This document shows, piece by piece, positions 19,150 to 46,570 of a stretch of 64,000 nucleotides of DNA; the first letter of the stretch is position 1; the number at the start of each line of letters is the position of its first letter. The notes beneath the pieces were generated by a model. That model was given only the letters and a program-made list of their open reading frames with translations, made no database searches and had not been told where the DNA came from. The stretch is taken from NCBI GenBank assembly GCA_049302065.1, contig JBAQLU010000249.1:18539-82538 (forward strand), read 5' to 3'. Source of the stretch: Thermodesulfovibrionales bacterium. Its GTDB lineage: Bacteria > Nitrospirota > Thermodesulfovibrionia > Thermodesulfovibrionales > SM23-35. The translations under genes and the position numbers were made by a program.

Positions 19150-19204
19150 CTTTTCTTACCTCTCAAAAACTTTCTGTTAGTAATGTTCACAACAATAAAC
19201 AACA

Positions 19205-27896: not shown

Positions 27897-28939
27897 ATCA
27901 AACAACCACCTTTTCCATCTTCCCCCGTATAAATATTGTCATAATCCCATCTTAAGACAGAATCATACGGACTTGAATGTGCTACATGACATGAGAGACA
28001 GATAACAATATCTTCGCCGGGTCTGACCTCTTCACCCGGCGATGCAGGAACCTTTACTCGCCCAACCGGGGCATCGATGCTATAAATCCTGATATCATCC
28101 CTATCAGATGGAGGAGGAATATCAGGATTATAATTCGCATACTCGCCTCTCTTTGGGAGAATGATGCCTGCCGGATGCCTAAACCATGGGCTCGGTTCTT
28201 TATCCATTTTCATATCCTTCTTGTGAAAGTCTGCATGACAGCTTGCACAGAGAAAATCCATTGTTGGAGAATATTCATTATGCTTTGTTGAAGAACTATC
28301 TTGATTCCAGTCTCTATCCTCAAGCCCCAGAACACCTTTTATTTTATCCGTATTTTTTAAAAACCTGTAACTCTTTGCTGTTGTGCTTCCATCCAGTGGT
28401 TTATCAACCGCATGATGAGTGCCGTAAACTGCTTCAAAGGGGTCTTCAATATTTCTATTTCCATGGCAGCCGTTAGAACCTGCGCATGTCAGAGGATTCT
28501 CAGGATTATAGCCGATACTTGAAATATCTGATGCCCTTACATATCCTGGAGGGGATCCTTTGAATTTTGCATCCATAGAAGATATACCATTTACATTATG
28601 TCCCTTTCTATCACCAAAATCCTTAGCTACATAATAAAAATTGCCACCCGCTAAGGGACGGACCGGCTTAACATTGCTGAAAACCACCGGAACCCTATTC
28701 CCACCAAGCATCTTTATAGTATCACTTGTATTATTTGAGTGACAATTTACGCAGAAAGTGTCTTTTAAGACATACTCAAATGGTTTGGCACGATAGGTTT
28801 TCTCCATCATGCCCGGGTAAACGGTATGGCATGCATCACAGTCTCCACCCACTTCAGCGATACTAATACCTGAGTATAAGATTATGACTAATAGACATAG
28901 AAACAGAATATTGATTATAAGTCTTGTCTTTTTTTGCAT
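27878..28939 (-). CDS. OmcS-like multiheme cytochrome, paralog 4 (5 CXXCH + 1 CX5CH)
   Basis: 353-aa ORF with a signal peptide. Motifs are CDACHT, CVNCH, AGGNFYYV..KGHNV, CAGSNGCHG, YRFL, CASCHADFH..WFRHP, CLSCHVAHSSPY, VLRWDY and GCLICHT. Confidence 0.8.
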   Translation of the reverse strand: MQKKTRLIINILFLCLLVIILYSGISIAEVGGDCDACHTVYPGMMEKTYRAKPFEYVLKDTFCVNCHSNNTSDTIKMLGGNRVPVVFSNVKPVRPLAGGNFYYVAKDFGDRKGHNVNGISSMDAKFKGSPPGYVRASDISSIGYNPENPLTCAGSNGCHGNRNIEDPFEAVYGTHHAVDKPLDGSTTAKSYRFLKNTDKIKGVLGLEDRDWNQDSSSTKHNEYSPTMDFLCASCHADFHKKDMKMDKEPSPWFRHPAGIILPKRGEYANYNPDIPPPSDRDDIRIYSIDAPVGRVKVPASPGEEVRPGEDIVICLSCHVAHSSPYDSVLRWDYDNIYTGEDGKGGCLICHTGK

Positions 28940-31448: not shown

Positions 31449-33503
31449 CTAAACCGCCACAGCCTTTTCAGTCTCCTTAAGCCATAAGAGTCTTGATCCA
31501 TTGATCAATGATGCATTGATGGATTCGATGAATTCATTGGGTGCAACATCAAGGCCTTCTTTTTTAGCAAAAGGACTGAATGAGAGTTTGGTTTTTATCC
31601 TGACCGCCTTATTAACCTCAGCCTCTGTGGGCAGTTTTATTGTCGTGCCCATAACCTTCGCAAGAGCGATGAAAATCTCTCTGTGGCTTTTTGATTCACC
31701 CTGAGGCTCGATTACTTTGGGTAAATATTTCAGCCTTCCCATGTAATCAACTATAGTGCCGGCAGCTTCGAGGAATGTTGCTGAAGGCAGAACAATATCA
31801 GCCTGCCTTGCGAGTCCGGATAGATGTGAGTTCTGCACAATAAGAAATTCAAGTCCCTCAGGCCTTGTCTGCAATGGCACTTCTCCAAGTGTATAAAGGA
31901 CTTTAACAGCGCTCTTTGCGCCCTGCCCTTTTCCCGATTCTATGCCGGCCATCTCTTTATACGTTTTATCTTCGGTTGTCAGACCCATCAATACGACACC
32001 ACGCACATTGCTTTCAAGCCCGACAGATATCACTTTTCCTTTGATCAGTGCAATATTGGCGGATGCTTCAAACAGGGAAGGAGAAGAAAAGATAAGTGGT
32101 TTATTTGCTTTGGAAATAAGATCAGCTGCCTTTTCAATATCTTCCGTAATCTCTTCATCTTTTACAGCAGCCAGGATCTTCTTATCTGCCTTATGTCCTT
32201 TTCCTGTTAAAGCCTTTGCAATACGTTTCAGATTGGATGTGATATTTCCTTTGAGAGTTACTGCTGCGACCTCTTCTATTTTTGTATCAGATGAATTAAT
32301 GATAATGAGTTTCGCTCCCCTGTTAACCCTCCTTCTCACAGATGCATCGAGAGCAGGCAAAGCCCTCTCCCACTGTGAAGGGTTCAGATCAACAAGTAAA
32401 ATAAGGTCAGCCTTATCAATATCTGTTTTTTGGGAGTTCCTGAAAGACTCACTATCTCCATACAGACTTAATGTTGTATCAAGGTTCTTTGTTTTCACAA
32501 CGTTTTTAGCAATCTTTTTTAATATCAGCGCATCTTCGTTTTCTATGCCTGCAACGCTTATAAAACCCGCTTCTTTACCGGCCTTCGTGAGTTTATCAGC
32601 AGCTATGGTGAGTGCGTCTTCCCAGGTAGTCTCTTTGAGTTCACCGTCTATCCTTTTCATGGGAACTCTAAGCCTCGACTCTGCCTCAATAGAGTCAAAG
32701 CCGAATCTCCCGTAGGCGCAGATATACTTTTCAGCTGAACCTGCCTCTGCTCCTGAATTTATCTTCTGTATTCTGCCGTCTTTGGTACTTACACTAATCT
32801 CACAGCCGTTTCCGCATAAAAGGCAGACAGAGTTTACCTTCTCATATTCCCATTCCCTTCCCTTGCGCCTCCTGTCCGACTCAAGGAGAGCATTCACAGG
32901 ACAGGCGTCGACACAGCTTCCGCAGAATGTGCATCCCGATTCCTGAAGCGGACTGTCAATTGCGGTAATAACCTTTGATTCAATGCCCCTGCCCATGAAT
33001 TCAAGGATATTCGTCCCCTGTTCCTTGCAGACCCTGACACACCTGCCGCACAGTATGCAGTAGTCTGGGTCTCTCTTGATAAAGGGGTTTGCTTCATCAA
33101 CAGGATAGCCAAACTTTTTCCTTGTAAAGCTCGATTCTTTAAGATCAAATTCATATGCATATTTCTGAAGATTGCATATCCCTGCCTTTGTACAGGTCAT
33201 ACAGTCAAGCGGATGCATGGAAAGGATAAGGTCTATAATGAATTTCCTTATCTCCAGGACTTTTTCTGTCTTCGTATTTATGACCATCCCCTCCCTGGCC
33301 TTTGTATTGCATGCTATCATCGGCGCTTTCAACCCCTCTATTTCTACAAGGCAAAGCCTGCATGCCCCGATGCCCTTCATGCCTTTGAGGTAACAGAGAT
33401 TCGGTATATAAACGCCAGCAAGCTCCGCTGCATCTATGAGATTCATGCCTTCGGGAGCCTGAACCATTGTGCCATCTATTGTAAGCTTAACCGTCTTTTC
33501 CAT
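31449..33503 (-). CDS. NuoG/FdhA-like iron-sulfur subunit (2Fe-2S ferredoxin domain, His/Cys 4Fe-4S, 2x[4Fe-4S], molybdopterin-oxidoreductase-like domain)
   Basis: 684-aa ORF. The N-terminus KLTIDGTMVQAPEGMNLIDAAELAGVYIPNLCY...GACRLCLVEIEG is the NuoG/HydA-type 2Fe-2S fold. It also has CILCGRCVRVC and CTFCGSCVDACP clusters and a MopB-type CLLCGNGC motif. I cannot tell from sequence whether the pterin site is catalytic. Confidence 0.85.
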   Translation of the reverse strand: MEKTVKLTIDGTMVQAPEGMNLIDAAELAGVYIPNLCYLKGMKGIGACRLCLVEIEGLKAPMIACNTKAREGMVINTKTEKVLEIRKFIIDLILSMHPLDCMTCTKAGICNLQKYAYEFDLKESSFTRKKFGYPVDEANPFIKRDPDYCILCGRCVRVCKEQGTNILEFMGRGIESKVITAIDSPLQESGCTFCGSCVDACPVNALLESDRRRKGREWEYEKVNSVCLLCGNGCEISVSTKDGRIQKINSGAEAGSAEKYICAYGRFGFDSIEAESRLRVPMKRIDGELKETTWEDALTIAADKLTKAGKEAGFISVAGIENEDALILKKIAKNVVKTKNLDTTLSLYGDSESFRNSQKTDIDKADLILLVDLNPSQWERALPALDASVRRRVNRGAKLIIINSSDTKIEEVAAVTLKGNITSNLKRIAKALTGKGHKADKKILAAVKDEEITEDIEKAADLISKANKPLIFSSPSLFEASANIALIKGKVISVGLESNVRGVVLMGLTTEDKTYKEMAGIESGKGQGAKSAVKVLYTLGEVPLQTRPEGLEFLIVQNSHLSGLARQADIVLPSATFLEAAGTIVDYMGRLKYLPKVIEPQGESKSHREIFIALAKVMGTTIKLPTEAEVNKAVRIKTKLSFSPFAKKEGLDVAPNEFIESINASLINGSRLLWLKETEKAVAV

Positions 33504-33708: not shown

Positions 33709-36048
33709 TTAATATACTTCCTTTGCAATATAGCAGATCTCCGGCAAGAGGTATGAGACTAAATCTCTGAAAGTAACCATCCCAATAATCTTTTCCCCTT
33801 CAACAATAGGCAGATGTCTGATATTCTTTCTTAATACGATAGCTATTGCCGAACTTATCTCTGTTGATGGGTCAAAGGTTGTGAGATCGGTTCTCATGAT
33901 ATTCCGTATGACTTCGTCCTCTAAAGATATGCCTTTCACAACACAACGCACGATGTCCCTCTCGGTAAATATCCCCACCAATTTATCATTCTCATCAACA
34001 ATGAATACCCCGCTAACATTCTTTTCACCCATAACTTTTACCGCATCAGAGATCTTCTGATCCTTATGTACGGTTACTACTATTAATGGTTTCGATTTTA
34101 TAATATTTCCCAATATCATCTTGAATCTCCTTTCAAATATGTCTATACTTTTAAAAGATAACTTCAGTTCTTCTTTAAGCCTTACCTGTCTTGGGCTCAT
34201 AAGCATAACTGCATTGACAGGACAGGCACGATAGCATGCCTTGCATTTCGTGCAGTAATCGCGGGCGATAAAGTATTTATCCTTTGTTTCAATAACAGCG
34301 CCAATGGCACATGCGTCTTTGCAGAGTCCACATTTGATGCATTCAGCCTGATTAATCACAAAAATGCCCATGCCGCTGCAGACCTTCGCCCTGCAGTATT
34401 TATCCTTCACATGCTCCTCGTATTCGTCACGGAAATATCGTATCGTTGTAAGAACAGGATTCGGTGCGCTCTGGCCAAGACCGCAGAGAGAGCCTGCTTC
34501 TATAAGCCTTCCAAGCCTATCGAGTCTTTCTATATCCCCTTCCTCACCCTTTCCCGTTGTTATCCTTTCGAGTATCTGCAGCATCTGGTATGTGCCTATT
34601 CTGCAGGGTGGACACTTCCCGCAGGATTCGGACTTGGTGAATGAAAGGAAGAATTTGGCAATATCAACCATGCAGTTGTCTTCATCCATGACAACCATGC
34701 CGCCCGAGCCCATCATCGAACCGACCTTCCGGAGTGAATCGAAATCTACCGGGAGATCAAGGTACTGCGATGGAATGCAGCCTCCGGAAGGACCACCCGT
34801 TTGTACTGCCTTGAATTTCTTATTGTCAATGATACCTCCGCCGATATCAAAAATAATCTCTTTGAGGGTTATCCCCATGGGAACCTCAACAAGCCCTGTA
34901 TTTTTAACCTTGCCTGTAAGGGCGAATACTTTTGTTCCAGGCGAGCCTTCAGTTCCTATACTCCTGAACCAGTCAGCGCCTTTCTCAATAATCGGTGGCA
35001 CACATACATAGGTCTCCACATTATTCAGATTTGCCGGATAGCCCCATGGACCGCCGCCGGGTTCAGAAACCCTTGGAGGACGTGCATGAGGGAAACCCCT
35101 GTTGCCCTCGATAGATGCAATAAGTGCGGTAGCCTCACCACAGACAAACGCACCAGCCCCTTCCTTGATATGAATGATAAAATCAAATCCTGTACCAAGG
35201 ATATTTTTTCCTAAAAGGCCGATCTCCTCTGCTTGCTTGATAGCCGTATTTAAATTCTTGACCGCAAGCGGATACTCATGACGCACATAAATAAAACCGT
35301 AATGTGCGTCAATTGTATAGGCACAGATTATCATGCCTTCAAGCAGGCTGTGCGGGTCGCCTTCCATGATCGACCTGTCCATAAAAGCACCAGGGTCGCC
35401 CTCATCACCATTGGCAATGACCATCTTAATGTTACCTGGAGCCTTTTTCGTATGCGCCCACTTGATGCCGGCAGGGAATCCTGCGCCGCCCCGTCCCCTG
35501 AGATTTGCCTCTTTTACCTCTTCAAGCACCTGTTCAGGACTCATAGAGGAAAATATCTTCTCAACAGCATTATATCCGCCGACAGCAATGTAATGATAGA
35601 TATTACATGGATCTATGTTTCCATTGTTCCTGAGAGCAATCCTCATCTGTTTTTTGTAAAACGGTATACCGTCCATTACTTCAACAGGCTTTTCAAGAAA
35701 AGTGCCTCTGTAGAGTAAATTCCTTACCGGGTAACCTGCCTTATAGGTAATCGGAATAACTCCCTTTATGTTTTCCCGATTTACCTTCTGATAGAAATAA
35801 CCATGGGGCTCAATCTTCATAACCGGACCTTTCTGGCAAATCCCCTGGCAACCTGTTTTTACAACTTCAAGATCAAGGCCATGTTTTACAATCTCTTCCT
35901 CAAGCACATGAACAACATCTCCAGAGCCTGAAGCCGTACAGGCGGTCCCGCAACATATCCTGACCCTGTTTTTTTCCGGATCGAATGTTTCACTGCTTAC
36001 CCGTGACCTCAGCTTCCGGAGATCATCTAAATTGTTAAGCCTCTCCAT
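33709..36048 (-). CDS. NuoF/HydB-like NAD(P)H-FMN iron-sulfur flavoprotein with an N-terminal thioredoxin-like 2Fe-2S domain, a C-terminal 2x[4Fe-4S] ferredoxin domain and a terminal CBS-domain pair (copy 2)
   Basis: 779-aa ORF with RGRGGAGFPAGIKW (NADH/FMN site), ANGDEGDPGAFMDR, ESCGKCPPCRIGT (N3 cluster) and CIKCGLCKDAC/CTKCKACYRACP. The C-terminus is VSGVFIVDENDKLVGIFTERDIVR...IRHLPIVEGEKIIGMVTFRDLV (CBS pair). Confidence 0.88.
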   Translation of the reverse strand: MERLNNLDDLRKLRSRVSSETFDPEKNRVRICCGTACTASGSGDVVHVLEEEIVKHGLDLEVVKTGCQGICQKGPVMKIEPHGYFYQKVNRENIKGVIPITYKAGYPVRNLLYRGTFLEKPVEVMDGIPFYKKQMRIALRNNGNIDPCNIYHYIAVGGYNAVEKIFSSMSPEQVLEEVKEANLRGRGGAGFPAGIKWAHTKKAPGNIKMVIANGDEGDPGAFMDRSIMEGDPHSLLEGMIICAYTIDAHYGFIYVRHEYPLAVKNLNTAIKQAEEIGLLGKNILGTGFDFIIHIKEGAGAFVCGEATALIASIEGNRGFPHARPPRVSEPGGGPWGYPANLNNVETYVCVPPIIEKGADWFRSIGTEGSPGTKVFALTGKVKNTGLVEVPMGITLKEIIFDIGGGIIDNKKFKAVQTGGPSGGCIPSQYLDLPVDFDSLRKVGSMMGSGGMVVMDEDNCMVDIAKFFLSFTKSESCGKCPPCRIGTYQMLQILERITTGKGEEGDIERLDRLGRLIEAGSLCGLGQSAPNPVLTTIRYFRDEYEEHVKDKYCRAKVCSGMGIFVINQAECIKCGLCKDACAIGAVIETKDKYFIARDYCTKCKACYRACPVNAVMLMSPRQVRLKEELKLSFKSIDIFERRFKMILGNIIKSKPLIVVTVHKDQKISDAVKVMGEKNVSGVFIVDENDKLVGIFTERDIVRCVVKGISLEDEVIRNIMRTDLTTFDPSTEISSAIAIVLRKNIRHLPIVEGEKIIGMVTFRDLVSYLLPEICYIAKEVY

Positions 36049-36114
36049 TCTTATTCCTCTTCTACAATTTTATTACTAAGACGGCTATAAGTAAAACAAC
36101 ATGCTTAGTAAATT

Positions 36115-36178
36115 TCTGTCATTCTGGCTTGTCCAGAATCCTTCTGAAGAAAGATTCCCGACAAGCGGGAATGACAGA
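36115..36178. repeat. REP-like long hairpin (GTCATTC...GAATGAC family)
   Basis: The sequence reads tctgtcattctggcttgtccagaatc cttctgaagaaa gattcccgacaagcgggaatgaca ga. It lies between the ferredoxin gene and NuoF-like copy 2. Confidence 0.75.
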
Positions 36179-36229
36179 CGAGTGTCCTTATTAATGACCG
36201 CATTATTAACTCGTCAAATCTATATTTCC

Positions 36230-36823
36230 CTAAACCTTAACCTCAGCCTCAGCCTTAGCCTTTACATCTACTATCTCGATCGCCCCGGTTGGGCATACAT
36301 TAATACATTCACCGCATTTGGTACATCTCTTCAGTCTTATTTCAAAAGGCAGATAACCGCTGAGATACGGTTTTCTCTTTTCCCCGATAATCGCATCATA
36401 TTTACAGACAACCTTACATTCACCGCATATGATACATTTTTCAGGATCAATTCTGTACTCTATAAAGGCAAAGCATTCCTTTTCACGGCATACACCTTCT
36501 ACGTGATTATAAAAGTCATCCGTATCCATCCACCCAAGGATAAACTTTGCCGTGTCTTTACCTTTCTTGCACCGGGAGGCTTCGATCATCCCATGCGCAA
36601 TCCGCTTAAGAGCAAAAAAATCATCTTTCGTACCTCTACCGGACAAAATCTCCTTGAGCCTTATTTTTGCCTCGTAGGCGCCAAATGAGCATGGAAAGCA
36701 CTTTCCACACATGGGATCTGCAAGAAACTGCTCTATATAATACATTGCCTTTTGAACGGGACAACGCTTCTCTTCCGCCTCATTTTTTATGTCTTCCACC
36801 TTTACCTCTTTGTGATCTGACAT
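36230..36823 (-). CDS. Iron-sulfur protein: NuoF-C-terminal-like 4Fe-4S module plus 2x[4Fe-4S] ferredoxin domain
   Basis: 197-aa ORF. MCGKCFPCSFGAYEA resembles the NuoF ESCGxCxPCR cluster motif. CIICGECKVVC and CTKCGECINVCP are classic ferredoxin motifs. Confidence 0.75.
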   Translation of the reverse strand: MSDHKEVKVEDIKNEAEEKRCPVQKAMYYIEQFLADPMCGKCFPCSFGAYEAKIRLKEILSGRGTKDDFFALKRIAHGMIEASRCKKGKDTAKFILGWMDTDDFYNHVEGVCREKECFAFIEYRIDPEKCIICGECKVVCKYDAIIGEKRKPYLSGYLPFEIRLKRCTKCGECINVCPTGAIEIVDVKAKAEAEVKV

Positions 36824-36839
36824 GCTCTCTCCATTAAAT

Positions 36840-39170
36840 TTATTTCGACATGTAGAGAATCTCTGGCAAGAGATAGGAGATCAAATCTCTAAAAGTGATC
36901 ATCCCCACGATCTCACCATGCTCAACAATGAGCAGATGTCTGATATTCTTTCTTAATGCGATAGCTATTGCCGAACTCAACACCATCGAGGGATCAAATG
37001 TTATAAGATCGGTTCTCATAATATTCTGTATTACTTCGTTCTCTAAAGATATGCCTTTCACAACACAACGCACGATGTCCCTCTCGGTAAATATCCCTAC
37101 TAATTTATCCTTCTCATCAACAACGAATACCCCGCTGACATTCTTCTTGCCCATAACCTTTACCGTATCAGAGACCGTCTGATCCTTATGGACGGTTACT
37201 ACTATTAACGGTTTCGATTTTATGATATTCTGTAACGTCATCTTACACCTTCGATCGATCATATCCAGACTTTCGAGCGGCAATTTTAATTCCTCCTCAA
37301 GCCTTATAAGTTTCGGGCTCAGAAGCTTGACTGCATTGACAGGGCAGACATAGTAGCATGCCTTACATCTGGTGCAGTAATCGCGGGCGATGGAGTATTT
37401 ATCCTTTGTTTCAATAATGGCATCAAAGGCACATGCCTCTTTGCAGAGTCCACATTCGATGCATTCAGCCTGGTTGATTTCAAAAATGCCCATGCCGCTG
37501 CAGATCTTCGCTCTGCAGTATTTATCCTTCACATGCTCCTCGTATTCTTCACGGAAATATCGTATCGTTGTAAGAACAGGGTTCGGTGCACTCTGGCCAA
37601 GACCGCAGAGAGAGCCTGCTGCTACGATCTTCCCAAGCCTCTCGAGTCTTTCTATATCCCCTTCCTCACCCTTTCCCGTTGTTATCCTTTCAAGTATCTG
37701 CAGCATCTGGTATGTGCCTATTCTGCAAGGCGGACACTTCCCGCAGGATTCGGACTGGGTGAATGAAAGGAAGAATTTGGCAATATCAACCATGCAGTTG
37801 TCTTCATCCATGACAACCATGCCGCCAGAGCCCATAATGGAACCGACCTTCCGGAGTGAATCGAAATCAACCGGCAGATCGAGATATTGTGTTGGTATGC
37901 ATCCTCCCGAAGGACCACCCGTTTGCACTGCCTTGAATTCCTTATTGTCAATGATACCCCCGCCGATATCAAAAATAATCTCTCTTAGGGTTATCCCCAT
38001 GGGAACCTCGACAAGCCCTGTATTTTTAACCTTGCCGGCGAGGGAAAAAACCTTCGTGCCCGGTGAGCCTTCAGTCCCGATACTCAGAAACCACTCAGCG
38101 CCCTTCTCTATAATGGACGGGACACAGGCATACGTTTCGATATTGTTTAGATTCGAAGGGTATCCCCAGGCCCCACCACCTTTTTCAGAAAGTCGTGGAG
38201 GCCTTGGGTTTGGGAATCCTCGGCCGCCCTCTACAGATGCAACCAGTGCGGTAGATTCACCACATACAAACGCACCTGCACCTTCTCTGATACCAACAGT
38301 AAAATCAAATCCTGTACCAAGGATATTTTTTCCTAAAAGGCCGCTCTCCTCTGCTTGCTCGATAGCCGTTTTCAGAGTTTTAATGGCAAGTGGATATTCA
38401 TGACGGACATAGATAAAACCATAATGTGCGTCAATTACATATGCGCAGATTAGCATGCCTTCAAGCAGGCTATGCGGGTCGCCTTCCATGATCGATCTGT
38501 CCATAAAAGCGCCTGGATCGCCCTCGTCACCATTGGCAATGACCATCTTGATCGCACTTTGAGCCTTTTTCGTATGTGCCCACTTGATGCCGGCAGGGAA
38601 TCCTGCGCCGCCCCGTCCCCTGAGATTTGCCTTTTTTATCTCCTCCAGCACCTGTTCAGGACTCATAGAGGAAAACATCTTCTCAACAGCATTATATCCG
38701 CCTACAGCAATGTAATGATAGATATTAAAGGGATCTATGTTGCCTGTATTTCTGAGTGCAATCTTCAACTGCTTTTTATAAAAGGGCAGTTCTTCCATCA
38801 CCTCAACAGGTTCTTCAAGAAAAGTGCCTCTATAGAGAAGCTCTCTTACCGGATAGCCTGCCTTATATGTGGTCAGAACAATGTCCTTTACATATTTTTG
38901 TTTGACTCTCTGGTAAAAATAACCATGCGGTTCAACCTTCATAACAGGACCGCTTTGACAAAGACCCTGACAACCCGTCTTTACCACTTCAATATCCATA
39001 CCGCTTTTGGAGATGTCTTCTTCTAAGACCTTAATAATTTTATGAGAACCTAAGACACTACAGGGAAGGCCACAGCAGACCCTCAATCTGTCTTTTTTCG
39101 GGTTGAATACTTCTTCGCTCAACCGTGATCTCAGGTTCTTAAGATCGTCTATGCTTTGAAGCCTCCCCAT
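36840..39170 (-). CDS. NuoF/HydB-like NAD(P)H-FMN iron-sulfur flavoprotein with a C-terminal CBS-domain pair (copy 1, tandem paralog of 33709..36048)
   Basis: 776-aa ORF, collinear with copy 2 over its full length and with long stretches of identical residues. It has the same motifs and the same CBS pair. Confidence 0.88.
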   Translation of the reverse strand: MGRLQSIDDLKNLRSRLSEEVFNPKKDRLRVCCGLPCSVLGSHKIIKVLEEDISKSGMDIEVVKTGCQGLCQSGPVMKVEPHGYFYQRVKQKYVKDIVLTTYKAGYPVRELLYRGTFLEEPVEVMEELPFYKKQLKIALRNTGNIDPFNIYHYIAVGGYNAVEKMFSSMSPEQVLEEIKKANLRGRGGAGFPAGIKWAHTKKAQSAIKMVIANGDEGDPGAFMDRSIMEGDPHSLLEGMLICAYVIDAHYGFIYVRHEYPLAIKTLKTAIEQAEESGLLGKNILGTGFDFTVGIREGAGAFVCGESTALVASVEGGRGFPNPRPPRLSEKGGGAWGYPSNLNNIETYACVPSIIEKGAEWFLSIGTEGSPGTKVFSLAGKVKNTGLVEVPMGITLREIIFDIGGGIIDNKEFKAVQTGGPSGGCIPTQYLDLPVDFDSLRKVGSIMGSGGMVVMDEDNCMVDIAKFFLSFTQSESCGKCPPCRIGTYQMLQILERITTGKGEEGDIERLERLGKIVAAGSLCGLGQSAPNPVLTTIRYFREEYEEHVKDKYCRAKICSGMGIFEINQAECIECGLCKEACAFDAIIETKDKYSIARDYCTRCKACYYVCPVNAVKLLSPKLIRLEEELKLPLESLDMIDRRCKMTLQNIIKSKPLIVVTVHKDQTVSDTVKVMGKKNVSGVFVVDEKDKLVGIFTERDIVRCVVKGISLENEVIQNIMRTDLITFDPSMVLSSAIAIALRKNIRHLLIVEHGEIVGMITFRDLISYLLPEILYMSK

Positions 39171-39173
39171 TTT

Positions 39174-39659
39174 TTATTCCTCTTTTATAAGTTTTATTAA
39201 CCTGTCCAGTTTCTTTGTACTTATTTCCCCTTTCACTTCATCGTTTACAGTTGCAACAGGTGCGAGGCCGCAGCATCCGATGCAGCCGACTGTTTCCAGG
39301 GTCATAGCAAAATCTTCAGTTGTTTCACCGGCTTTCACATTGAACCTTTCCTCAACCGTGTTCAGGATCTCCTTAGCACCCCTTACATAACATGCCGTCC
39401 CCATACAAATCTTAACAATCTTTCTTCCCCGCGGTTTGAAATGAAATAGTTTGTAAAAACTCGCGACGCTATAAATTTCTGCGAGCGGGAGATTGAGTTT
39501 CTTCGAAAGATTCCTCAGGACATCCTCGGGTAAATACCCATTGTCCTCCTGAATTTTCTGAAGGACATGTATCAGGATTCCCCTTTTCTTTTCGTCGTTA
39601 CGAAGGATTCGGCCTACCTCACCTATCTGTTCGTTGACGTTAATCTCTTCTACTATCAT
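39174..39659 (-). CDS. NuoE/HydC-like thioredoxin-fold 2Fe-2S subunit
   Basis: The sequence is MIVEEINV...ILIHVLQKIQEDNGYLPEDVLRNLSKKLNLPLAEIYSVASFYKLFHFKPRGRKIVKICMGTACYVRG...CIGCCGLAP. I prefer the ATG at 39659, which has GGAGG 8 nt upstream. The track start at 39827 overlaps cooS and reads through a REP element. Confidence 0.85.
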   Translation of the reverse strand: MIVEEINVNEQIGEVGRILRNDEKKRGILIHVLQKIQEDNGYLPEDVLRNLSKKLNLPLAEIYSVASFYKLFHFKPRGRKIVKICMGTACYVRGAKEILNTVEERFNVKAGETTEDFAMTLETVGCIGCCGLAPVATVNDEVKGEISTKKLDRLIKLIKEE

Positions 39660-39674
39660 TGTGCCTCCAAAATT

Positions 39675-39728
39675 GTAGCCGCAGGCTTCAGCCTGCGATA
39701 ATACACGCACCCTAAAGGGTGCGGCTAC
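39675..39728. repeat. Structured REP-like palindrome, copy 2 (same family as 30343-30396)
   Basis: The sequence reads gtagccgc aggcttcagcct gcgataatacacgc accctaaagggt gcggctac. It fills the cooS-nuoE-like intergenic gap. Confidence 0.8.
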
Positions 39729-39729
39729 A

Positions 39730-41715
39730 CTAATAAATTCCGATATGCGGTTTTGCTGCCCTTTCAATTTCGCGGCGTGCAGCCATATCCATGAGGACCC
39801 TTTCGGCACCGAATTTTCCGGGTTCATACTTTTTCAGTTTCAGTGCCTCCCTCGCCTCATCGATATATTTGAGAGTAAGATCGAGGATTTTTTCAGGATC
39901 CGGCTCAAAGTGAAGTGCTCCCTTGAACCGTTCAAGCCACACCTCCGTTATGATCTTCGTTACTTCTTCACTTGCTCCAACCGGGGACTCACCACCAAAT
40001 ATGACGGGAACACCTGAGGCTGCAAAATAGCAACCGATAGCAATAGCCTTTTCACTCATCCATTCAGGAGCGATACCAACAGCCGGCATCCCACCTATCT
40101 CGTCAGAAAGCCCCCCTTCTTCAGCCATAGCGGTTACTATGGTCAAAATCCTCGAATTATCCACACATGAACCAACGTGAAGGATTGGAGGAATACCTAT
40201 TGCCTCACAAACTTCCTTTAATCCAGGCCCTGCATTCTCCAATGCCATCTCAGGTGTCAGATACCCGGCAGTACTACACGCAGCAGAGCCACAGCCGGTA
40301 GAAACGACCAGTACATCATGCTTGATCAATTCGAGTGCAAGAAAACGGTGAAGTCCCTGCGAAGGGACCCTTGGATTATCACAACCTGCAAGGCCAACAA
40401 CCCCTCGAATTCTCCCTGCTATAATCGCATCATTGAGCGGTCTGAACGATGCCCTCCAAGAACCACCCTGCATGTATTCGATATATTCGTGCGAAAACCC
40501 TGCTATTAACGGAAACTTATCTGAAATATGGCTACCTTCTGCTTTTCTGTTGGCATAGTTGTCAATAGCGAGCTTGACAATCTCCCGAGCGATTTCTTTT
40601 GCTCTATGCTCATCATATTGAATATGAATAGCGCCTGGGATTTTTGCTTTATAAGAAGTAGTTATTACCTTTGTATGGAACTTTTTTGAAAGTTCTGCTA
40701 TAGCAGGCATTATGCACTGCACATCAACTGTTATTGCATCAACAAGTCCTGTCAAAATTGCCAGTTCCTGATTTGTAAAACCTCCTGCCGTTGGAATGCC
40801 GTGCCTCATCAACAATTCATTTGCAGTACAACACATTCCCCCAAGATTGATGCCTTTTGCACCTTTTGATTTCGCATATTCGATCATCTCCGGTTCATTG
40901 ACTACATTTACGATTACCTCTGCCAGTGAAGGCTCATGTCCATGAACCACGAGGTTGACTTCATCTTCTTTGAATATTCCAAAACCTGCCTCTGCCTTTA
41001 CAGGTTTAGGAGTTCCAAAGAGGATATCGGTAATATCTGACGAGATCATGGACCCGCCCCACCCATCAGCGAGGGAAACCTTGAGCGCACTCAGAAGAAG
41101 ATTGTCAGGGTCATGGTCAACACCCATGTTCGTACGGTGCATTGACTCTGCTATTTCTCGATCTATGCCTCTTGGAGTTATCCCCCACTTCTTCCACCTT
41201 TCCTGCGTCTTCTTGGGCGCCCGTTTTATATAATTCAGCTCACCTTTCTGACGTCTGAAATCCTCAAGGAGTTTCATTGCTACATCCCTGGCAACATCAT
41301 TGACAGAACGACCTTCGAACTCTATTTCAAGGATTCCTGCGATCTTATATAGCTTTTTTACATCGGTTATCCTAAAATCACTTGCTTCTCCATTTGCAAC
41401 TGCAAGTAATGTAAAAGCCATATCCCGAGCGTGGTCTGAATGTGCTGCTGCACCTGCTACAGCCATTCGCACAAGATTTCTTGAAGCAACTGTCGGGAGC
41501 GTTGCTCCACATACCCCCCTTGCTTCCTCCTCTGCGTTCTGGCCAACAAACCTGCATGGTCCTATATGGCATGTCCTGCAACATGCACCACTAGATCCGA
41601 TAGGGCACGGTTTCATTTTTTGTGCCCTGTCAAAGCACGTCTCTATCTCTTGGGATTCGCTCCACTCGATAATCTTCTCTGCAGCCTCGTTTGCACTTTT
41701 TATAATCTTATCCAT
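39730..41715 (-). CDS. cooS: Anaerobic Ni-Fe carbon monoxide dehydrogenase catalytic subunit
   Basis: 661-aa ORF. It has the N-terminal cluster motifs CPIGSSGACCRTCHIGPCR and GVCGA and is collinear with the CooS/AcsA family. It sits directly downstream of acsB. Confidence 0.9.
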   Translation of the reverse strand: MDKIIKSANEAAEKIIEWSESQEIETCFDRAQKMKPCPIGSSGACCRTCHIGPCRFVGQNAEEEARGVCGATLPTVASRNLVRMAVAGAAAHSDHARDMAFTLLAVANGEASDFRITDVKKLYKIAGILEIEFEGRSVNDVARDVAMKLLEDFRRQKGELNYIKRAPKKTQERWKKWGITPRGIDREIAESMHRTNMGVDHDPDNLLLSALKVSLADGWGGSMISSDITDILFGTPKPVKAEAGFGIFKEDEVNLVVHGHEPSLAEVIVNVVNEPEMIEYAKSKGAKGINLGGMCCTANELLMRHGIPTAGGFTNQELAILTGLVDAITVDVQCIMPAIAELSKKFHTKVITTSYKAKIPGAIHIQYDEHRAKEIAREIVKLAIDNYANRKAEGSHISDKFPLIAGFSHEYIEYMQGGSWRASFRPLNDAIIAGRIRGVVGLAGCDNPRVPSQGLHRFLALELIKHDVLVVSTGCGSAACSTAGYLTPEMALENAGPGLKEVCEAIGIPPILHVGSCVDNSRILTIVTAMAEEGGLSDEIGGMPAVGIAPEWMSEKAIAIGCYFAASGVPVIFGGESPVGASEEVTKIITEVWLERFKGALHFEPDPEKILDLTLKYIDEAREALKLKKYEPGKFGAERVLMDMAARREIERAAKPHIGIY

Positions 41716-41818: not shown

Positions 41819-44017
41819 TTATAAAATCGGTTCCATTTCCAATGCCGGATGTCCGGCGCTGGCGAGGAACTCGAGTAATTTCTCGGAATCTTCACATACG
41901 GTCTCATCAGCAATCTTGGCTAAAAGGTCCGGCACCCCTTCCTCGGCTGCTCTCTTATCAAAAGCTTCTTTAAGGCTTTCTTTCAGATTTTTGGTCATCC
42001 AGACAATTCTCTTAATCCCTCCATCACCGGCAAGAAATTTCTTGCTGACAATAAAAATCCTGCCAACGCCCATAAATCCGGGGTTTTGGGTGCCTCCACC
42101 TACAGTTCCCGCTAATGTAGAAAACTTCATCCCTGCAGGTGTCATTCCGGTATGACCGCGGTTAACGATCATTACACCATTAGCTTCCGGAATGATCGCT
42201 ACGATACACTCGAAGCAGCCGCATGAGGTCATGGGATTCTCCATAATCGTATAAAGGTTCAACGTCTCTAACGCACCGCCTGATGCCTTTTTGAGATATT
42301 CATCGATACCGGTATACCTCCCGTATTTTGTATCGATAAGGTCTCCCTTGAGTATGGGCTGGTTCCCTCCTGTTGGGTCTATCTCAAAGGCCGCCTTACA
42401 GTCGAGCCAGTTATATGCTCCACAGAGACCGAGACGTTCGGGGCTGATGACGCAAACATGACTCGGAGCAAAGGACTGGCAGAGAAGACAGGAATAAAAT
42501 GTGTCCACCGCATCGTCGACAAGTCCGCCCAGTCTCCGGTCGCGTTCTTTGTATGCCGCCCTCGCCTCCTCCTGCAATCTCAGCACATCTTTCTCATCGG
42601 TATAGATCGTCACCTGAACCTTATCCACAATCGACTTGAACCTGTGGTGTGTCATCGTAGCATTGAGTATTCCGAGATGCTCAAGGGTGAATCCGTCCTT
42701 TTTTGCGTTTTGGTTGATCCTTATCCAGTTGATATCGCGCTGGCCCATGTGCCAGATGCCCTGGGCCTCATTGATATTATGATGCACTTTCCTTTCTATG
42801 ACAGACTCAAAATCCTTCTGCATCTTTCTGCCTGCCACATCAATGACAATGGCCAAAGGCATCTTCCCGCCTTTCTCATACTGTTCCTGCCAGTTATTGC
42901 CAATCAGGGTGACCTTGCCATCCTCGATATCTTCCATTTCACGCATCCTTACCCACTCAAACGAAGGGGTACGCGCACCACCGAATTCTATGAACATATC
43001 TTCTTTCCGTATCCGCTCACCTTCGAATGCCGGGCCGTAGGAAACGGGTATAGGAGGTTTATCAACAACGATTTTCAAACCCCTCACCTCTATCGCCTTC
43101 TGAACAATCTTATTATGGTCAAATTCTTTATCGACCGCTTCATAAATACACACACCTGTCGGATGTATAACCGGAACATCAGTATCACAAATAGCAGGAA
43201 AGCCCATATTTATAGCGCCGGCTCCTGTTGACCATTTAATGTCATCAAAATCTCCGAGGGCAATTGCAAATGCAAAGACCCTATCTTTTTGGTACTTTAG
43301 ATGCTCCTTAAAATCTCCTGGTTTTTTGCCTCCAAATATAAGTGACGCCCTTATCGCCCAATCAAGGGCGTAAAGGGTATGTTCCGTATCAGGACCGAGG
43401 GGGACGATTCTTGTATCCCAGCCCAGTTCAACACCTTTTCTCTGAAGCTGTTTCGTTACACTATTACCATTGGTGTGGCCTGAAAGAAAGGTAAGGATAT
43501 TCTTCTCCTGAAGTTCTCGTATTATCTTTACTGCAGTATCATCATCAGGCGCTGCTCCGATAACTGCAGCAAAACCCGGCATTGTCCCATCGACAAGCTG
43601 GATGCCCAGATTCCTCTGAATAGTATCTGTTACAAAACCATTATAGACATATCCTGTTTCAGGATCTGTTACAGGTTCAAGGCCATTTATATAACGTAAT
43701 GCCATGATAATCTCTTCAGCAAAGAGCGTAGCCATCCCTGAATCAAGTGCTTCACCCAAATATGGTTTCCAGAGGTGTTCCTCAGGTTCCGGATGGAGTA
43801 ATTCTCTTGCCATACCGAGAGCCACCTTCATATCCGACAGCGTTTTAACAGGAAAACCTGTCATGGCATATATCATGGGAAGATAATATGCTGTATCAGG
43901 GAATTCAAATGGAAAACTTAATCCCTTTTCAGTAATAGTTTTTTCGAGCATTTCCTCAGCCTGCCTGACAAGCCTGTGTGCGCCTCTTATAGCTGCTGAG
44001 GCTATTAACTTAGACAT
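41819..44017 (-). CDS. acsB: CO-methylating acetyl-CoA synthase (ACS, A-cluster subunit)
   Basis: 732-aa ORF. It has the A-cluster motif region ...MTSCGCFECIVAI... and is AcsB/CdhC-like over its full length. Confidence 0.9.
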   Translation of the reverse strand: MSKLIASAAIRGAHRLVRQAEEMLEKTITEKGLSFPFEFPDTAYYLPMIYAMTGFPVKTLSDMKVALGMARELLHPEPEEHLWKPYLGEALDSGMATLFAEEIIMALRYINGLEPVTDPETGYVYNGFVTDTIQRNLGIQLVDGTMPGFAAVIGAAPDDDTAVKIIRELQEKNILTFLSGHTNGNSVTKQLQRKGVELGWDTRIVPLGPDTEHTLYALDWAIRASLIFGGKKPGDFKEHLKYQKDRVFAFAIALGDFDDIKWSTGAGAINMGFPAICDTDVPVIHPTGVCIYEAVDKEFDHNKIVQKAIEVRGLKIVVDKPPIPVSYGPAFEGERIRKEDMFIEFGGARTPSFEWVRMREMEDIEDGKVTLIGNNWQEQYEKGGKMPLAIVIDVAGRKMQKDFESVIERKVHHNINEAQGIWHMGQRDINWIRINQNAKKDGFTLEHLGILNATMTHHRFKSIVDKVQVTIYTDEKDVLRLQEEARAAYKERDRRLGGLVDDAVDTFYSCLLCQSFAPSHVCVISPERLGLCGAYNWLDCKAAFEIDPTGGNQPILKGDLIDTKYGRYTGIDEYLKKASGGALETLNLYTIMENPMTSCGCFECIVAIIPEANGVMIVNRGHTGMTPAGMKFSTLAGTVGGGTQNPGFMGVGRIFIVSKKFLAGDGGIKRIVWMTKNLKESLKEAFDKRAAEEGVPDLLAKIADETVCEDSEKLLEFLASAGHPALEMEPIL

Positions 44018-44030
44018 CCCGACCTCCTAT

Positions 44031-44140
44031 ATAATCAGAATACAGAACTCAGAATACAGAGCACAGATTACAGAACACAGATTTTAATTTCTTATTAGAC
44101 TTCTTTGGTCTATGCTCTGTGTTCTGTCTTCTGTGATCTC
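44031..44140. repeat. Inverted heptamer arrays (CAGANNN x7 / NNNTCTG x4) in the acsC-acsB intergenic gap
   Basis: The sequence reads cagaata cagaact cagaata cagagca cagatta cagaaca cagattt ...loop... tctatgc tctgtgt tctgtct tctgtga tct. Confidence 0.85.
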
Positions 44141-44146
44141 TTTAAT

Positions 44147-45490
44147 TTATGCTGCTCTCGATTTCAGGAATGCAGGCAACCCGTTTGCTTCCCGGGGACC
44201 GACTGTTATCTTCCATCCCTCAAGTTTATCTTCTATTGCTCCGCTCAGTATCGAAACATAACCAGGGATAATAAGCTCCCGGTGTTTTATATTGTTCTCA
44301 ACTCCGCTTTCTTTAATAAATTGTGCGATCTTTGATGCTGTAAATTTCCCTGCTGCCCATGCTGTAAGCACAGACAGGCCTTCGCAGTCCATGACAGCGA
44401 GATAACCCGGCACCCTGCTGTTTTCAATCTCACCGGAGACGATAAAATATGTAAGTGAGAAGTTTGTTGTAATCATGAGCGGCGATTCCGGATTCGGCTC
44501 TCCTATCTTATATATCTTTTGCTCGACCTGCATCGGCACCTGGGGGTCTGTGTAGATATTCTGTCTTAAGGTGAACAGAGAAAGATTCTTCCATTTTTCT
44601 ATACTGCTCAGGACGACTATTGAAGAATATTTTGCGACACCTATGGATGCAATAAGTGATTCAACAAGACTGTCTTCACGCTGTGCAAAAGTTATCACCG
44701 GATATCCGAGAGGCTTAAAATTCTTCTTGACAGCAGCCCTCCTGATTAATGTATTGTGCTCTAAAATTTCCTTCGCCTTTCTTGCGCCGGAATCCATTAC
44801 CATATCTTCAACACCGAGTGATTTGATCTTTTCAGTAAGGTTAGCAAGTTCATCCAGCCCATTCGCCATAATCCCGAGTGCTGTTTTATATGTCTTTGCA
44901 ATGCCTGTCATTGCTTCTGCATTTTCTGAATTCACTCCGTAAATGACTGGTTTCTTGTTTGAGAATATTATTGCTGCGGTCTCGGCAGACCGGGGGTCTG
45001 TCGCGCAGATAATAACAGGGACTTCAGGCGCCTTTGCCGCAACAGTTTTTGCAAGAGACTCAAATCTGCCTGTATCATTTGAAGTATTCTTCAGTGCAAT
45101 TGCATCAATCCTCAGCTTCTGACCTACCCTGTCGATCTCAGAATCAAGAACCTCCTTAATCTTAAGATCGATTTCAGAATCCGAAAGCGTATCCTGTATC
45201 TCAAGCGCAAAAACACACGGATTGACAAAACGCTTGTCATGCCTGAAAAGCACTGTCTCTTCTCCGAGTTTGACTGCCTTCTCACCTGTCCCCATGATAA
45301 TTGGTCTTACAGGCGGAGCTGAGGCCTCACCGAGTTTCTGTTTTGCCTCTTCAGAGACATCAGGACATGCGTCAAGAGTTACCTGTCTCTGAGCAAGTTT
45401 CATAGCAAAGGCAAGACAGGTAGGGAAGCCGCATTTCTTACAATTTGTCTTTGGCAGGAGTTTGAATATTTCTACACCGGTTAAAGCCAT
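44147..45490 (-). CDS. acsC: Corrinoid iron-sulfur protein, large subunit
   Basis: 447-aa ORF. The N-terminus MALTGVEIFKLLPKTNCKKCGFPTCLAFAMKLA carries the characteristic 4Fe-4S motif of AcsC/CdhE. Confidence 0.9.
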   Translation of the reverse strand: MALTGVEIFKLLPKTNCKKCGFPTCLAFAMKLAQRQVTLDACPDVSEEAKQKLGEASAPPVRPIIMGTGEKAVKLGEETVLFRHDKRFVNPCVFALEIQDTLSDSEIDLKIKEVLDSEIDRVGQKLRIDAIALKNTSNDTGRFESLAKTVAAKAPEVPVIICATDPRSAETAAIIFSNKKPVIYGVNSENAEAMTGIAKTYKTALGIMANGLDELANLTEKIKSLGVEDMVMDSGARKAKEILEHNTLIRRAAVKKNFKPLGYPVITFAQREDSLVESLIASIGVAKYSSIVVLSSIEKWKNLSLFTLRQNIYTDPQVPMQVEQKIYKIGEPNPESPLMITTNFSLTYFIVSGEIENSRVPGYLAVMDCEGLSVLTAWAAGKFTASKIAQFIKESGVENNIKHRELIIPGYVSILSGAIEDKLEGWKITVGPREANGLPAFLKSRAA

Positions 45491-45509: not shown

Positions 45510-45600
45510 AAAGGATTCCAGGATTTAAGTGGTCAAGGGTTCAAGCGATTAAACTTTCATTTATATGAACCCTCGAATCCTTGAATCCTCGACCCCTTAT
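45510..45600. repeat. Inverted short-repeat array (CAAGG-type) in the acsD-acsC intergenic gap
   Basis: The sequence reads aaaggattccaggatttaagtggtcaagggttcaagcg ...loop... gaaccctcgaatccttgaatcctcgaccccttat. Confidence 0.8.
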
Positions 45601-45610: not shown

Positions 45611-46552
45611 TTAAGTCAGTTCTTCTATTACTTTTTCCACTGCATCGATTGCCTTTGGGTGTCTCATGATGAGAAGCTCAGTTCCAGCCATAAGCAGGGC
45701 CATGGCAGTAGTTGCCTCCCATGCTATACCTCTTTCTTCCAGACTTCCCCATTGCGGGACATCTGATTCAGCAGCCTGGGTCTCCTTAACCTTCCAGACG
45801 TACATGCCTACATCACCCAGCAGCGGCTGCTGCATGGTAGAATCATTCTGTGTAAGCGCAGCAAGCCGTATCCGCTCCATAACCGAATACGTATATTCAA
45901 GACCATACCCGAGAGCAGAACACATAGGGTCTGTAATGATTCTTTCTTTATCAAACCCCATCTGTGAAATAAGAATATTCAGCTGCTTCGAGAGGTTGAT
46001 ATCAAGCTCTGACATTGCGATCAGTTTATGGTTGTTAGCCATTGCAGCAGCAGCGATCGTCTTATAATTCGCTTCCTGTGCTTTGCCGATAATACAATTC
46101 CTGTCTTTGGCAGCCTCTGCTGCAGAGATTAAAACAGAAGCATCTTTCTCTGCGTGATTGCTTCCAAGAATAATCAGGGGGAGATCAGTCGCTGAAATTA
46201 CATCCCTGACGGTTTTTGCTGCGTCTTCCGGTGAGCGATTCTCTCTGTCGGGGTGCGTACCTGTGAGCCTGAGTGCGATAGCCTTTGCCTTTAATGTTTC
46301 CTGACAGAATTTGGCCCATGAGACAGGATTATGCGATACATCCTTATAAGGCTTCTGTACTTCCTCAGGCCAGTCATCCGGTGGAACATCCTGTATTTCG
46401 CAGGCTATAACCGGACTGTTTGGCGATGAACCTTCAAAGGTATGGAATGGAAGAACATTTTCACCCCCGAAGGTAAGCGCCCGGGGACCGGTACCGATTG
46501 TTACAGAATAGACCTTACCTGAATAAGTTTCTTTCGGCAGTGCCAAAGCCAT
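45611..46552 (-). CDS. acsD: Corrinoid iron-sulfur protein, small subunit
   Basis: 313-aa ORF of the size and position expected for AcsD/CdhD, between acsE and acsC. A good SD (GGAGGAG) precedes the ATG. Confidence 0.8.
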   Translation of the reverse strand: MALALPKETYSGKVYSVTIGTGPRALTFGGENVLPFHTFEGSSPNSPVIACEIQDVPPDDWPEEVQKPYKDVSHNPVSWAKFCQETLKAKAIALRLTGTHPDRENRSPEDAAKTVRDVISATDLPLIILGSNHAEKDASVLISAAEAAKDRNCIIGKAQEANYKTIAAAAMANNHKLIAMSELDINLSKQLNILISQMGFDKERIITDPMCSALGYGLEYTYSVMERIRLAALTQNDSTMQQPLLGDVGMYVWKVKETQAAESDVPQWGSLEERGIAWEATTAMALLMAGTELLIMRHPKAIDAVEKVIEELT

Positions 46553-46570
46553 GTCTCCTCCTTTACATTT

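Follow-up and report, generated by a model that had tools for sequence, protein, structure and literature searches.

Why would a flavoprotein of the electron-bifurcating type carry a pair of CBS domains, and why would two such proteins be encoded almost side by side? This question is raised by a 64,000-nucleotide stretch of DNA from a Thermodesulfovibrionales bacterium of the Nitrospirota (NCBI GenBank assembly GCA_049302065.1, contig JBAQLU010000249.1, positions 18,539 to 82,538 of the forward strand), which is referred to here as the window. Its minus strand carries two long genes, designated F1 and F2, whose predicted products resemble the BfuB/HydB subunits of Bfu-type enzymes and end in a CBS pair, also called a Bateman module. 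A small ferredoxin-like gene, designated Fdx, lies between them. The proteins of this region are identical to NCBI metagenome-assembled genome entries MFZ3138948-50. The central features, with the support for each in brackets, are as follows.

36840-39170, minus strand: F1, BfuB/HydB-type flavoprotein, 776 aa (open reading frame listing, Pfam, NCBIfam, PDB matches)
33709-36048, minus strand: F2, second BfuB/HydB-type flavoprotein with CBS pair, 779 aa (open reading frame listing, Pfam, NCBIfam, BLASTP)
36840-37241, minus strand: CBS (Bateman) module of F1, aa 644-776 (Pfam, PDB matches, AlphaFold2)
33709-34119, minus strand: CBS (Bateman) module of F2, aa 644-779 (Pfam)
36230-36823, minus strand: Fdx, 197 aa, paralogue of the BfuB C-terminal half (BLASTP-type similarity, PDB matches, Pfam)
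37536-37850, minus strand: best-homogenised tract on the F1 side, codons about 441-545 (partner tract in F2 at 34414-34728)
36115-36178, minus strand: imperfect hairpin with 31-nt arms in the Fdx/F2 spacer (folding, z = -5.8)

F1 and F2 are BfuB/HydB-type subunits

A preliminary description of this locus had proposed two collinear, closely similar NuoF/HydB-like proteins, each composed of four parts. Both points hold. The reading frames of 776 and 779 aa align without gaps at 629 of 776 identical residues (81%, BLASTP), and Pfam matches every part in F1 as well as in F2. The shared set consists of 2Fe-2S_thioredx, Complex1_51K, SLBB, NADH_4Fe-4S, Fer4_21, and two stretches of CBS, with E values of 1e-42 for the FMN/NADH core (Complex1_51K) and 1e-33 for the N3-type cluster domain (NADH_4Fe-4S). 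An alignment of 57 family members shows no variation in the GRGGAGFP and NGDEGDPGAFMDR motifs of the NuoF-like core, nor in the ligands of the N-terminal [2Fe-2S] cluster (C32/33, C37, C67, C71), the N3/B1 ligands (C476, C479, C482, C522), or the eight cysteines of the 2x[4Fe-4S] domain (C570-C580 and C599-C609). The hinge motif H546-x5-C552-x4-C557 is likewise invariant and aligns with its counterpart in 7t2r_B, which gives three candidate ligands for the 3Cys/1His metal site (Zn or 'B2') of the hinge.

The best PDB matches of F1 extend over aa 29-614 and have E values of 1e-181 to 1e-218 (7t2r_B, 8a6t_B, 7q4v_B, 8oh5_B, 9n5u_B, and 7p5h_B). They belong to NiFe-HydABCSL (7T2R), HydABC (8A6T, 7Q4V, and 7P5H), Stn (8OH5), and NfnABC (9N5U). 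Neither F1 nor F2 reaches the NuoF equivalog level, with TIGR01959 scores of 461-467 bits against a cutoff of 558.65 and NF008436 scores of 378-385 bits against 749. The Bfu family is defined by its N-terminal [2Fe-2S] and C-terminal 2x[4Fe-4S] clusters, which non-bifurcating NuoF homologues lack (PMC9304861). Judged by their sequences, F1 and F2 are BfuB/HydB-type subunits and not the NuoF of respiratory complex I, and the HydB-like nature that had been suspected is borne out by both the solved relatives and the equivalog scores.

A Bateman module extends the C terminus

None of the solved BfuB, HydB, or NuoF chains found in the PDB search reaches beyond about residue 620 of F1, and none has a CBS extension. 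In F1 and F2, a linker of about 30 residues (aa 621-655) joins the 2x[4Fe-4S] domain to the Bateman module, which begins at a nearly invariant Met644. The CBS assignment made at the outset stands up to a profile search, with PF00571 matching two stretches in each protein at 84-89 bits (cutoff 24) and at E values of 6e-24 and 2e-25 in the two copies. The CBS motifs quoted at that time also occur in both, except that F1 has FVVDE and not FIVDE. Three solved CBS-pair proteins match the module at E values of 1e-18 to 1e-14, and these closest structures are all archaeal, namely ST2348 (2EF7), MJ1225 (3KH5), and MJ0100 (3KPB). AlphaFold2 yields the expected beta-alpha-beta-beta-alpha secondary structure for the module, with a predicted local distance difference test (pLDDT) score of 77-90. 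The module also evolves under purifying selection, with omega values of 0.13-0.26. The CBS pair is therefore real insofar as profile, sequence, and fold-prediction checks can establish it.

Both CBS motifs carry the G-h-h-T-x-x-D signature (GIFTERD and GM(I/V)TFRD). More generally, G-h-h-T/S-x-x-D is the ribose-phosphate binding motif of CBS domains, and both MJ1225 and MJ0100 bind adenosyl ligands. Residues T695, D698, T759, and D762 are invariant in the 57 family sequences, and the RH pair R744/H745 is invariant across the family alignment. Given that these signatures are conserved and that MJ1225, MJ0100, and ST2348 are the nearest solved relatives, we favour a role for the module as an adenosyl-ligand sensor that would modulate movement of the ferredoxin-facing domain. 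The suggestion that the CBS pair provides energy-charge control is plausible in view of the conserved ribose-binding motifs.

Some further details of the module were recorded. Two cysteines are conserved family-wide, one being C702 (...RDIVRC...) and the other lying in the C-terminal tail (...LLPEICY). A redox-sensitive disulfide is conceivable. In the clade of F1, the otherwise conserved tail cysteine of ...PEICY is replaced (EILY) and the last three residues are gone. Pro747, which is more than 90% conserved, is replaced in the F1 of the window and in its closest relatives, P0002-P0004 (RHLP to RHLL or RHLI). The PDB matches also include recent entries with titles and chain labels that point to multi-subunit assemblies: three listed as 'CBS domain-containing protein' (9ZNF, 9ZNG, and 9ZNI), a 'Dehydrogenase' (9SR9_H), and a 'signal-transduction protein with CBS domains' (9E6Q_3). 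These might be precedents for CBS domains on redox complexes.

Distribution of the fusion

PF00571 is found in all 120 of the best clusters at 90% identity, whose members are 70-100% identical to F1, and thus the fusion occurs in at least 120 clusters. Database labels of the relatives read Nitrospirae, Nitrospirota, 'Nitrospira sp.', or Candidatus Sulfobium. In an exhaustive search at 50% identity, the best 150 representatives were screened for independent NuoF-CBS fusions, and only one of these NuoF-like matches (P0121, 66% identity) is full-length with a CBS match. Because a single representative is left at this level, the fusion appears to be abundant in metagenomes yet confined to one narrow clade. 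CBS domains are lacking in some proteins within or next to this clade, including those of Candidatus Sulfobium (loci L004 and L005), those of loci L006 and L003, and the third paralogue of locus L084.

A literature search returned no paper pairing NuoF or HydB with 'CBS domain', and nothing relevant was found on Nitrospirota or Sulfobium in combination with NuoEFG or acetyl-CoA synthase. The fusion of NuoF/HydB with a CBS pair is conserved in one bacterial clade and has no characterised example in the searched literature or among the solved chains of the PDB, which agrees with the original claim that none is known. Novelty in the sense of rarity does not hold, given the number of clusters and the fact that the JGI already names this architecture ('NuoF/CBS domain-containing protein/(2Fe-2S) ferredoxin').

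The flavoproteins are encoded at the distal end of a CODH/ACS operon

F1, Fdx, and F2 lie within a single minus-strand run of genes for carbon monoxide dehydrogenase/acetyl-CoA synthase (CODH/ACS) and for NuoE- and NuoG-like proteins, in the order acsE-acsD-acsC-acsB-cooS-nuoE-F1-Fdx-F2-nuoG. This cluster is flanked by rimP/nusA on one side and by scpA on the other. The remaining members are listed below.

46647-47429, minus strand: acsE-like methyltransferase, first gene of the operon (Pfam Pterin_bind)
45611-46552, minus strand: acsD, corrinoid Fe-S protein small subunit (Pfam CdhD)
44147-45490, minus strand: acsC, corrinoid Fe-S protein large subunit (NF003195, 600 bits)
41819-44017, minus strand: acsB, acetyl-CoA synthase (NF040764, 1020 bits)
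39730-41715, minus strand: cooS/acsA, Ni-CODH catalytic subunit (TIGR01702, 596 bits; cutoff 478)
39174-39659, minus strand: NuoE/HydC (BfuC)-like [2Fe-2S] subunit, probably 161 aa (Pfam 2Fe-2S_thioredx, E 1.5e-46)
31449-33503, minus strand: NuoG/BfuA-like Fe-S subunit with a molybdopterin-like domain, 684 aa (TIGR01973 full-length, 354 bits)

The cooS gene is located directly upstream of nuoE, and a CODH gene thus shares the cluster with a bfuABC-type set. This arrangement is not peculiar to the window. Of 15 related Nitrospirota loci, 14 (L001-L006 and L081-L088) have the order acsE-D-C-B-cooS-E-F...-Fdx-G, and in these the E-F-Fdx-G module follows directly after cooS on the same strand with short spacers, with F identities of about 70-93%. 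The sole exception is L007, whose F-type gene has no acs neighbours. No nuo membrane genes are present in the 64-kb window. From this gene order, F1 and F2 form the distal part of a CODH/ACS operon together with the NuoE/NuoF/NuoG-like (BfuC/B/A) set. A separate observation is that L007 contains an 892-aa open reading frame (7405-10080) resembling an F-Fdx fusion, with no acs genes upstream.

Fdx and the partner subunits

The ferredoxin-like gene that had been noticed between the two copies is located at 36230-36823. It matches F1 aa 455-620 at 31% identity (E 7e-22), and its PDB matches are to the C-terminal 160 aa of BfuB/HydB chains. Fdx contains NADH_4Fe-4S and Fer4 domains by Pfam and keeps the N3-type, the hinge-like H/C/C, and the 2x[4Fe-4S] cysteines. 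These similarities identify the predicted protein as a paralogue of the C-terminal half of BfuB. An Fdx match is present in every related operon that reaches this position, regardless of the number of F copies. To describe one of the two flavoproteins as having a ferredoxin partner is therefore misleading, since Fdx is a constant operon member derived from half of a BfuB protein.

Both the BfuC (NuoE-like) and the BfuA (NuoG-like) partner genes adjoin F1-Fdx-F2, as expected of a Bfu-type set. The NuoE-like reading frame as called encodes 217 aa, and the part at 39660-39827 runs into the 3ˊ end of cooS and also covers a hairpin. Because its orthologues are 161-166 aa long, the true start is probably Met57 at 39659, which gives a protein of 161 aa. 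The 684-aa NuoG/BfuA-like subunit has PDB matches to 7t2r_A, 2fug_3, and the N-terminal half of 6tg9_A, and its NuoG equivalog score is under the NCBIfam cutoff. An assignment of this subunit as a formate dehydrogenase was considered and rejected because it is NuoG/BfuA-like and lacks a Molydop_binding domain by Pfam. Its Fdh-alpha match is only partial, whereas the NuoG match is full-length.

Two copies are maintained and partly homogenised

The DNA of F1 and F2 is 83% identical overall, but identity in 90-nt windows ranges from 56 to 98%, with exact runs of up to 69 nt. A 32-mer cited in the preliminary description as evidence of near-identical DNA is indeed present exactly twice in the window, at 34394 and 37516. 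Identity is 93-97% in codons about 441-545 compared with 62-76% at the gene ends, and synonymous divergence (dS) between the copies is as low as 0.12 in the N3 domain but exceeds 1.3 in the N-terminal domain. The window has three tracts (codons about 161-220, 441-545, and 681-740) in which similarity is greater between paralogues than between orthologues. Similar tracts of 240 to about 1300 nt occur in L081, L084, and L086, where the paralogues are 98-100% identical within the tract and 56-78% identical elsewhere. Three regions differ between the copies in every genome, namely the [2Fe-2S] domain at the N terminus, the linker at aa 621-655, and CBS2 together with the C-terminal tail. From these alignments, gene conversion clearly homogenises the catalytic core of F1 and F2 while the ends stay distinct, and the conversion tracts that were suspected earlier are thus found both in the window and in other genomes. 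A difference in NADH/NADPH specificity between F1 and F2 was also considered. This is unlikely because the nucleotide/FMN motifs at aa 183-232 are identical and fall inside a conversion tract.

Positional orthologues of F1 and of F2 exist in L081, L082, and L084, with orthologue omega values of 0.07-0.14 for the F copies. These data indicate that both copies are held by selection and that the duplication predates the species compared. Neighbour-joining trees conflict in the placement of copies depending on whether the CBS region is included, as expected from gene conversion, and they are unbootstrapped. The timing of the duplication was accordingly judged by positional orthology and pairwise dS. 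The number and order of genes between E and G vary as follows.

E-F-Fdx-G: L001, L002, and L087
E-F1-Fdx-F2-G: window, L081, and L082/L083
E-F-F-Fdx-G: L003, L085, and L086
E-F-Fdx-F-F-Fdx-G: L084
E-F-[free 135-aa CBS pair]-Fdx-G: L088

The last of these is relevant to the role of the module. In L088, a stand-alone gene for a 135-aa CBS pair (12384-12791) is located between F-CBS and Fdx, at the position occupied by the second F copy in L085 and L086. It starts at the equivalent of Met644 and is 81% identical to the module of the F protein of L002, whereas its identity to the module of the neighbouring F is only 66%. This gene resembles a second F copy that was lost except for its CBS end. Because it is closer to the module of another lineage than to that of its neighbour, its retention points to an advantage in keeping a second, different Bateman module, in line with hetero-dimerisation of these modules. 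As a side observation, the operon of L084 (10001-20261) has two Fdx genes and three F paralogues (776, 782, and 692 aa), of which the 692-aa one lacks CBS.

Proposed function and alternative explanations

We see an evenly balanced case for F1 and F2 being two BfuB isoforms of a Bfu-type complex that includes Fdx, is linked to CODH/ACS, and senses an adenosyl ligand through its CBS modules. The complex would be a NuoE/NuoF/NuoG-like (BfuC-BfuB-BfuA) iron-sulfur flavoprotein with Fdx, in which F1 and F2 would bind NAD(H) and FMN. This module would pass electrons among NAD(H), ferredoxin, and CODH/ACS, bifurcating or confurcating like other Bfu enzymes, and would thereby support either the reduction of CO2 or the oxidation of acetyl-CoA through the Wood-Ljungdahl pathway. 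In the HydABC enzyme of Thermotoga maritima, the C-terminal 2x[4Fe-4S] part of HydB is a mobile 'bridge' domain with a 3Cys/1His zinc site as its hinge, and it has been proposed to convey electrons that come from ferredoxin (PMC9499530). For F1 and F2, the C-terminal Bateman module would bind an adenosyl ligand (AMP, ADP, ATP, or similar) and gate the movement of the tethered 2x[4Fe-4S] domain, and hence electron flow. Bateman modules commonly work as dimers, and the two isoforms would provide two different CBS modules and two different N-terminal [2Fe-2S] domains on an otherwise identical core.

A more elaborate version of this proposal, which we regard as quite unlikely, is that the two isoforms form a heterodimeric Bateman sensor disc that locks or releases the mobile 2x[4Fe-4S] domain, switching the CODH/ACS-coupled Bfu enzyme on and off or reversing its direction between CO2 fixation and acetyl-CoA oxidation. 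The trigger would be an adenine nucleotide or another metabolite. In some relatives, the disc would be built from one isoform and a free CBS protein, or from two copies of a single isoform. If true, this would be the first case of allosteric regulation in a flavin-based electron-bifurcating enzyme and would define a new ACS-linked type of Bfu enzyme.

Several considerations weigh against a CODH/ACS-linked complex with CBS sensors. Members of the fusion family are known from genes alone, and gene adjacency is the sole ground for a physical coupling to CODH/ACS. Furthermore, the CO/CO2 couple, at -520 mV, has no obvious need for bifurcation, a point that was also raised by the authors of the Bfu study (PMC9304861). 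The ligand of the CBS pair is not readable from the sequence, and the full-length AlphaFold2 model (mean pLDDT 67) is of low quality except in the CBS and N-terminal parts, so that it does not place the docking site of the CBS module. Gene conversion also disturbs the unbootstrapped trees. Finally, the existence of CBS-less relatives (L003-L006, including Candidatus Sulfobium) and of single-copy relatives (L001, L002, and L087) implies that the complex can do without the CBS module and without the second isoform.

Other explanations of the locus can be weighed against the same evidence. It is somewhat unlikely that the E-F-Fdx-G set is uncoupled from CODH/ACS and serves as a soluble NADH:ferredoxin-type oxidoreductase or as the NADH-input (N) module of a membrane complex I whose genes lie elsewhere (Nuo-Bfu type). 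Such a role would accord with the NuoG-like character of the BfuA-like subunit over its full length, with the placement of Nitrospirae BfuB sequences in the Nuo-Bfu clade by Schut et al. (PMC9304861), with the counting of NuoEFG within complex I in the Candidatus Sulfobium paper, and with the F-type gene of L007 that stands apart from acs genes. However, the absence of nuo membrane genes from the window, the consistent position of the module behind cooS, and the subthreshold NuoF and NuoG equivalog scores all speak against such a role. We also consider it unlikely that the main role of the CBS pair is structural, with the pair holding together two BfuB protomers, or F1 and F2, as an oligomerisation module rather than regulating in response to a ligand. 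CBS pairs usually dimerise, and the operon of L088 keeps a free CBS-pair gene. Moreover, HydABC-type enzymes are protomer dimers or tetramers with cross-protomer contacts through their C-terminal domains (PMC9499530). A purely structural function, however, would not need the ribose/phosphate-type residues T695/D698, T759/D762, and R744/H745 to be invariant, and the CBS-less relatives evidently assemble without the module.

The second copy invites two further explanations, both of which conflict with the comparative data. That F2 is a redundant recent duplicate heading for loss, with the similarity tracts reflecting protein constraint only, is very unlikely. Some relatives have a single F gene, and others differ in how many copies they carry and in what order (F-Fdx-F, F-F-Fdx, and F-Fdx-F-F-Fdx), as this explanation would predict, but in at least four genomes neither copy is disrupted and both evolve under purifying selection (omega about 0.13). 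Protein constraint also fails to explain the tracts because dS varies about ten-fold along the gene and because paralogues within a genome are closer than orthologues. The chance that the tandem duplication is an assembly artefact, a concern because the window comes from a metagenome-assembled genome, is negligible, since the copies differ at 17% of bases and the E-F1-Fdx-F2-G order recurs in independent JGI, ENA, and NCBI assemblies.

Comparison with known systems

The HydB subunits of Bfu enzymes (Acetomicrobium mobile NiFe-HydB, 7T2R; Thermoanaerobacter kivui, 8A6T; Acetobacterium woodii, 7Q4V; T. maritima, 7P5H) are collinear with aa 29-614 of F1 and F2, with which they are about 50-56% identical. 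Common to both are the N-terminal [2Fe-2S] domain, the FMN/NADH core, the N3-type cluster, the H/C/C hinge motif, and the 2x[4Fe-4S] domain, and the HydB subunits also have adjacent genes for NuoE-like and NuoG-like partners. In contrast, F1 and F2 have the extra linker of about 30 aa with the Bateman module and exist as two isoforms, and their operon encodes an additional small subunit (Fdx) that copies the C-terminal half of BfuB. The partner also differs, being a hydrogenase for Bfu HydB and, by gene adjacency, CODH/ACS for F1 and F2. NuoF of complex I (Nqo1) shares the FMN/NADH core and the N3 cluster (E about 1e-105) but lacks the N-terminal [2Fe-2S], the C-terminal 2x[4Fe-4S], and the CBS domains. 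The archaeal CBS-pair proteins 2EF7, 3KH5, and 3KPB have the same two-CBS Bateman layout and both G-h-h-T-x-x-D motifs, but they are free or embedded in other architectures, whereas the module in the window is fused to a redox flavoprotein.

The nearest parallel for the gene cluster is the predicted Codh-Bfu type, which was reported only in Firmicutes, with CODH genes sandwiched between bfuB and bfuA, and which was assigned to BfuB clade 49 together with NiFe-HydB (PMC9304861). As in Codh-Bfu, a BfuABC-type set in the window shares a cluster with a Ni-CODH gene, and the closest solved BfuB to F1 is NiFe-HydB of clade 49. The window differs by its cooS-C-B-Fdx-B-A order after a complete acsE-D-C-B-cooS, by its Nitrospirota origin, and by the presence of Fdx, the CBS modules, and a duplicated BfuB. 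Both systems are predicted and known from genes.

Enzymes of the Bfu/HydABC type are central to the energy conservation of anaerobes, and their mechanism has been proposed to depend on motion of the C-terminal Fe-S domain of BfuB (PMC9499530). No description of an allosteric regulator of this movement was found in the searched literature. A Bateman module fused to the mobile domain would offer a handle for asking whether electron bifurcation is metabolically gated, particularly as the module is conserved within the CODH/ACS operon of widespread sulfate-reducing or autotrophic Nitrospirota. The locus also points to an undescribed link, outside Firmicutes, between CODH/ACS of the Wood-Ljungdahl pathway and an NAD(H)-dependent Fe-S flavoprotein complex. 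In addition, the two genes provide a clean case of mosaic gene conversion, in which the core is kept identical while the regulatory and peripheral domains diverge.

Hairpins and transcription signals

A repetitive extragenic palindromic (REP) hairpin had been described between the two copies. The hairpin itself is real and lies in the 181-nt spacer between Fdx and F2, with arms of 31 nt, and the spacer folds at z = -5.8. However, the REP label is unsupported because the arm sequence at 36115-36178 occurs only once in the 64-kb window when up to three mismatches are allowed. Other intergenic hairpins in the window differ from it in sequence. Long imperfect hairpins are found in the spacers of the acs operon, at 46568-46637, 45511-45598, 44032-44144, and 39674-39729, and those of the acsE/acsD and acsD/acsC spacers have the sequence TGAACCCTCGAATCCTTGAA in common. 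A search of the operon against Rfam gave only sub-threshold matches to microRNA-precursor and small RNA models, and the microRNA matches fall on the long hairpins (44027-44151 and 45512-45597). These spacer hairpins may be elements of mRNA processing or stability. A scan for promoters and terminators gave counts at chance level, and therefore no evidence for separate transcription of F2. A promoter-like site before acsE (47678-47649) is only a weak match to the consensus.

Other genes in the window

A large cluster of multihaem c-type cytochrome genes occupies 681-15650 and 25409-28939. Four open reading frames in the cytochrome region, encoding 774, 392, 193, and 213 aa (19892-22216, 10910-12088, and 18568-19846), have no Pfam match at E 1e-5 or 1e-6. 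The products of the cluster include proteins that Paired_CXXCH matches 6 and 11 times, a tandem set of three paralogues (337-381 aa), and an 1821-aa protein that combines cytochrome c7-like and Ig-like parts. Proteins with NHL/beta-propeller, FG-GAP, and PPIase domains are encoded as well, and this gene set suggests an extracellular electron-transfer system.

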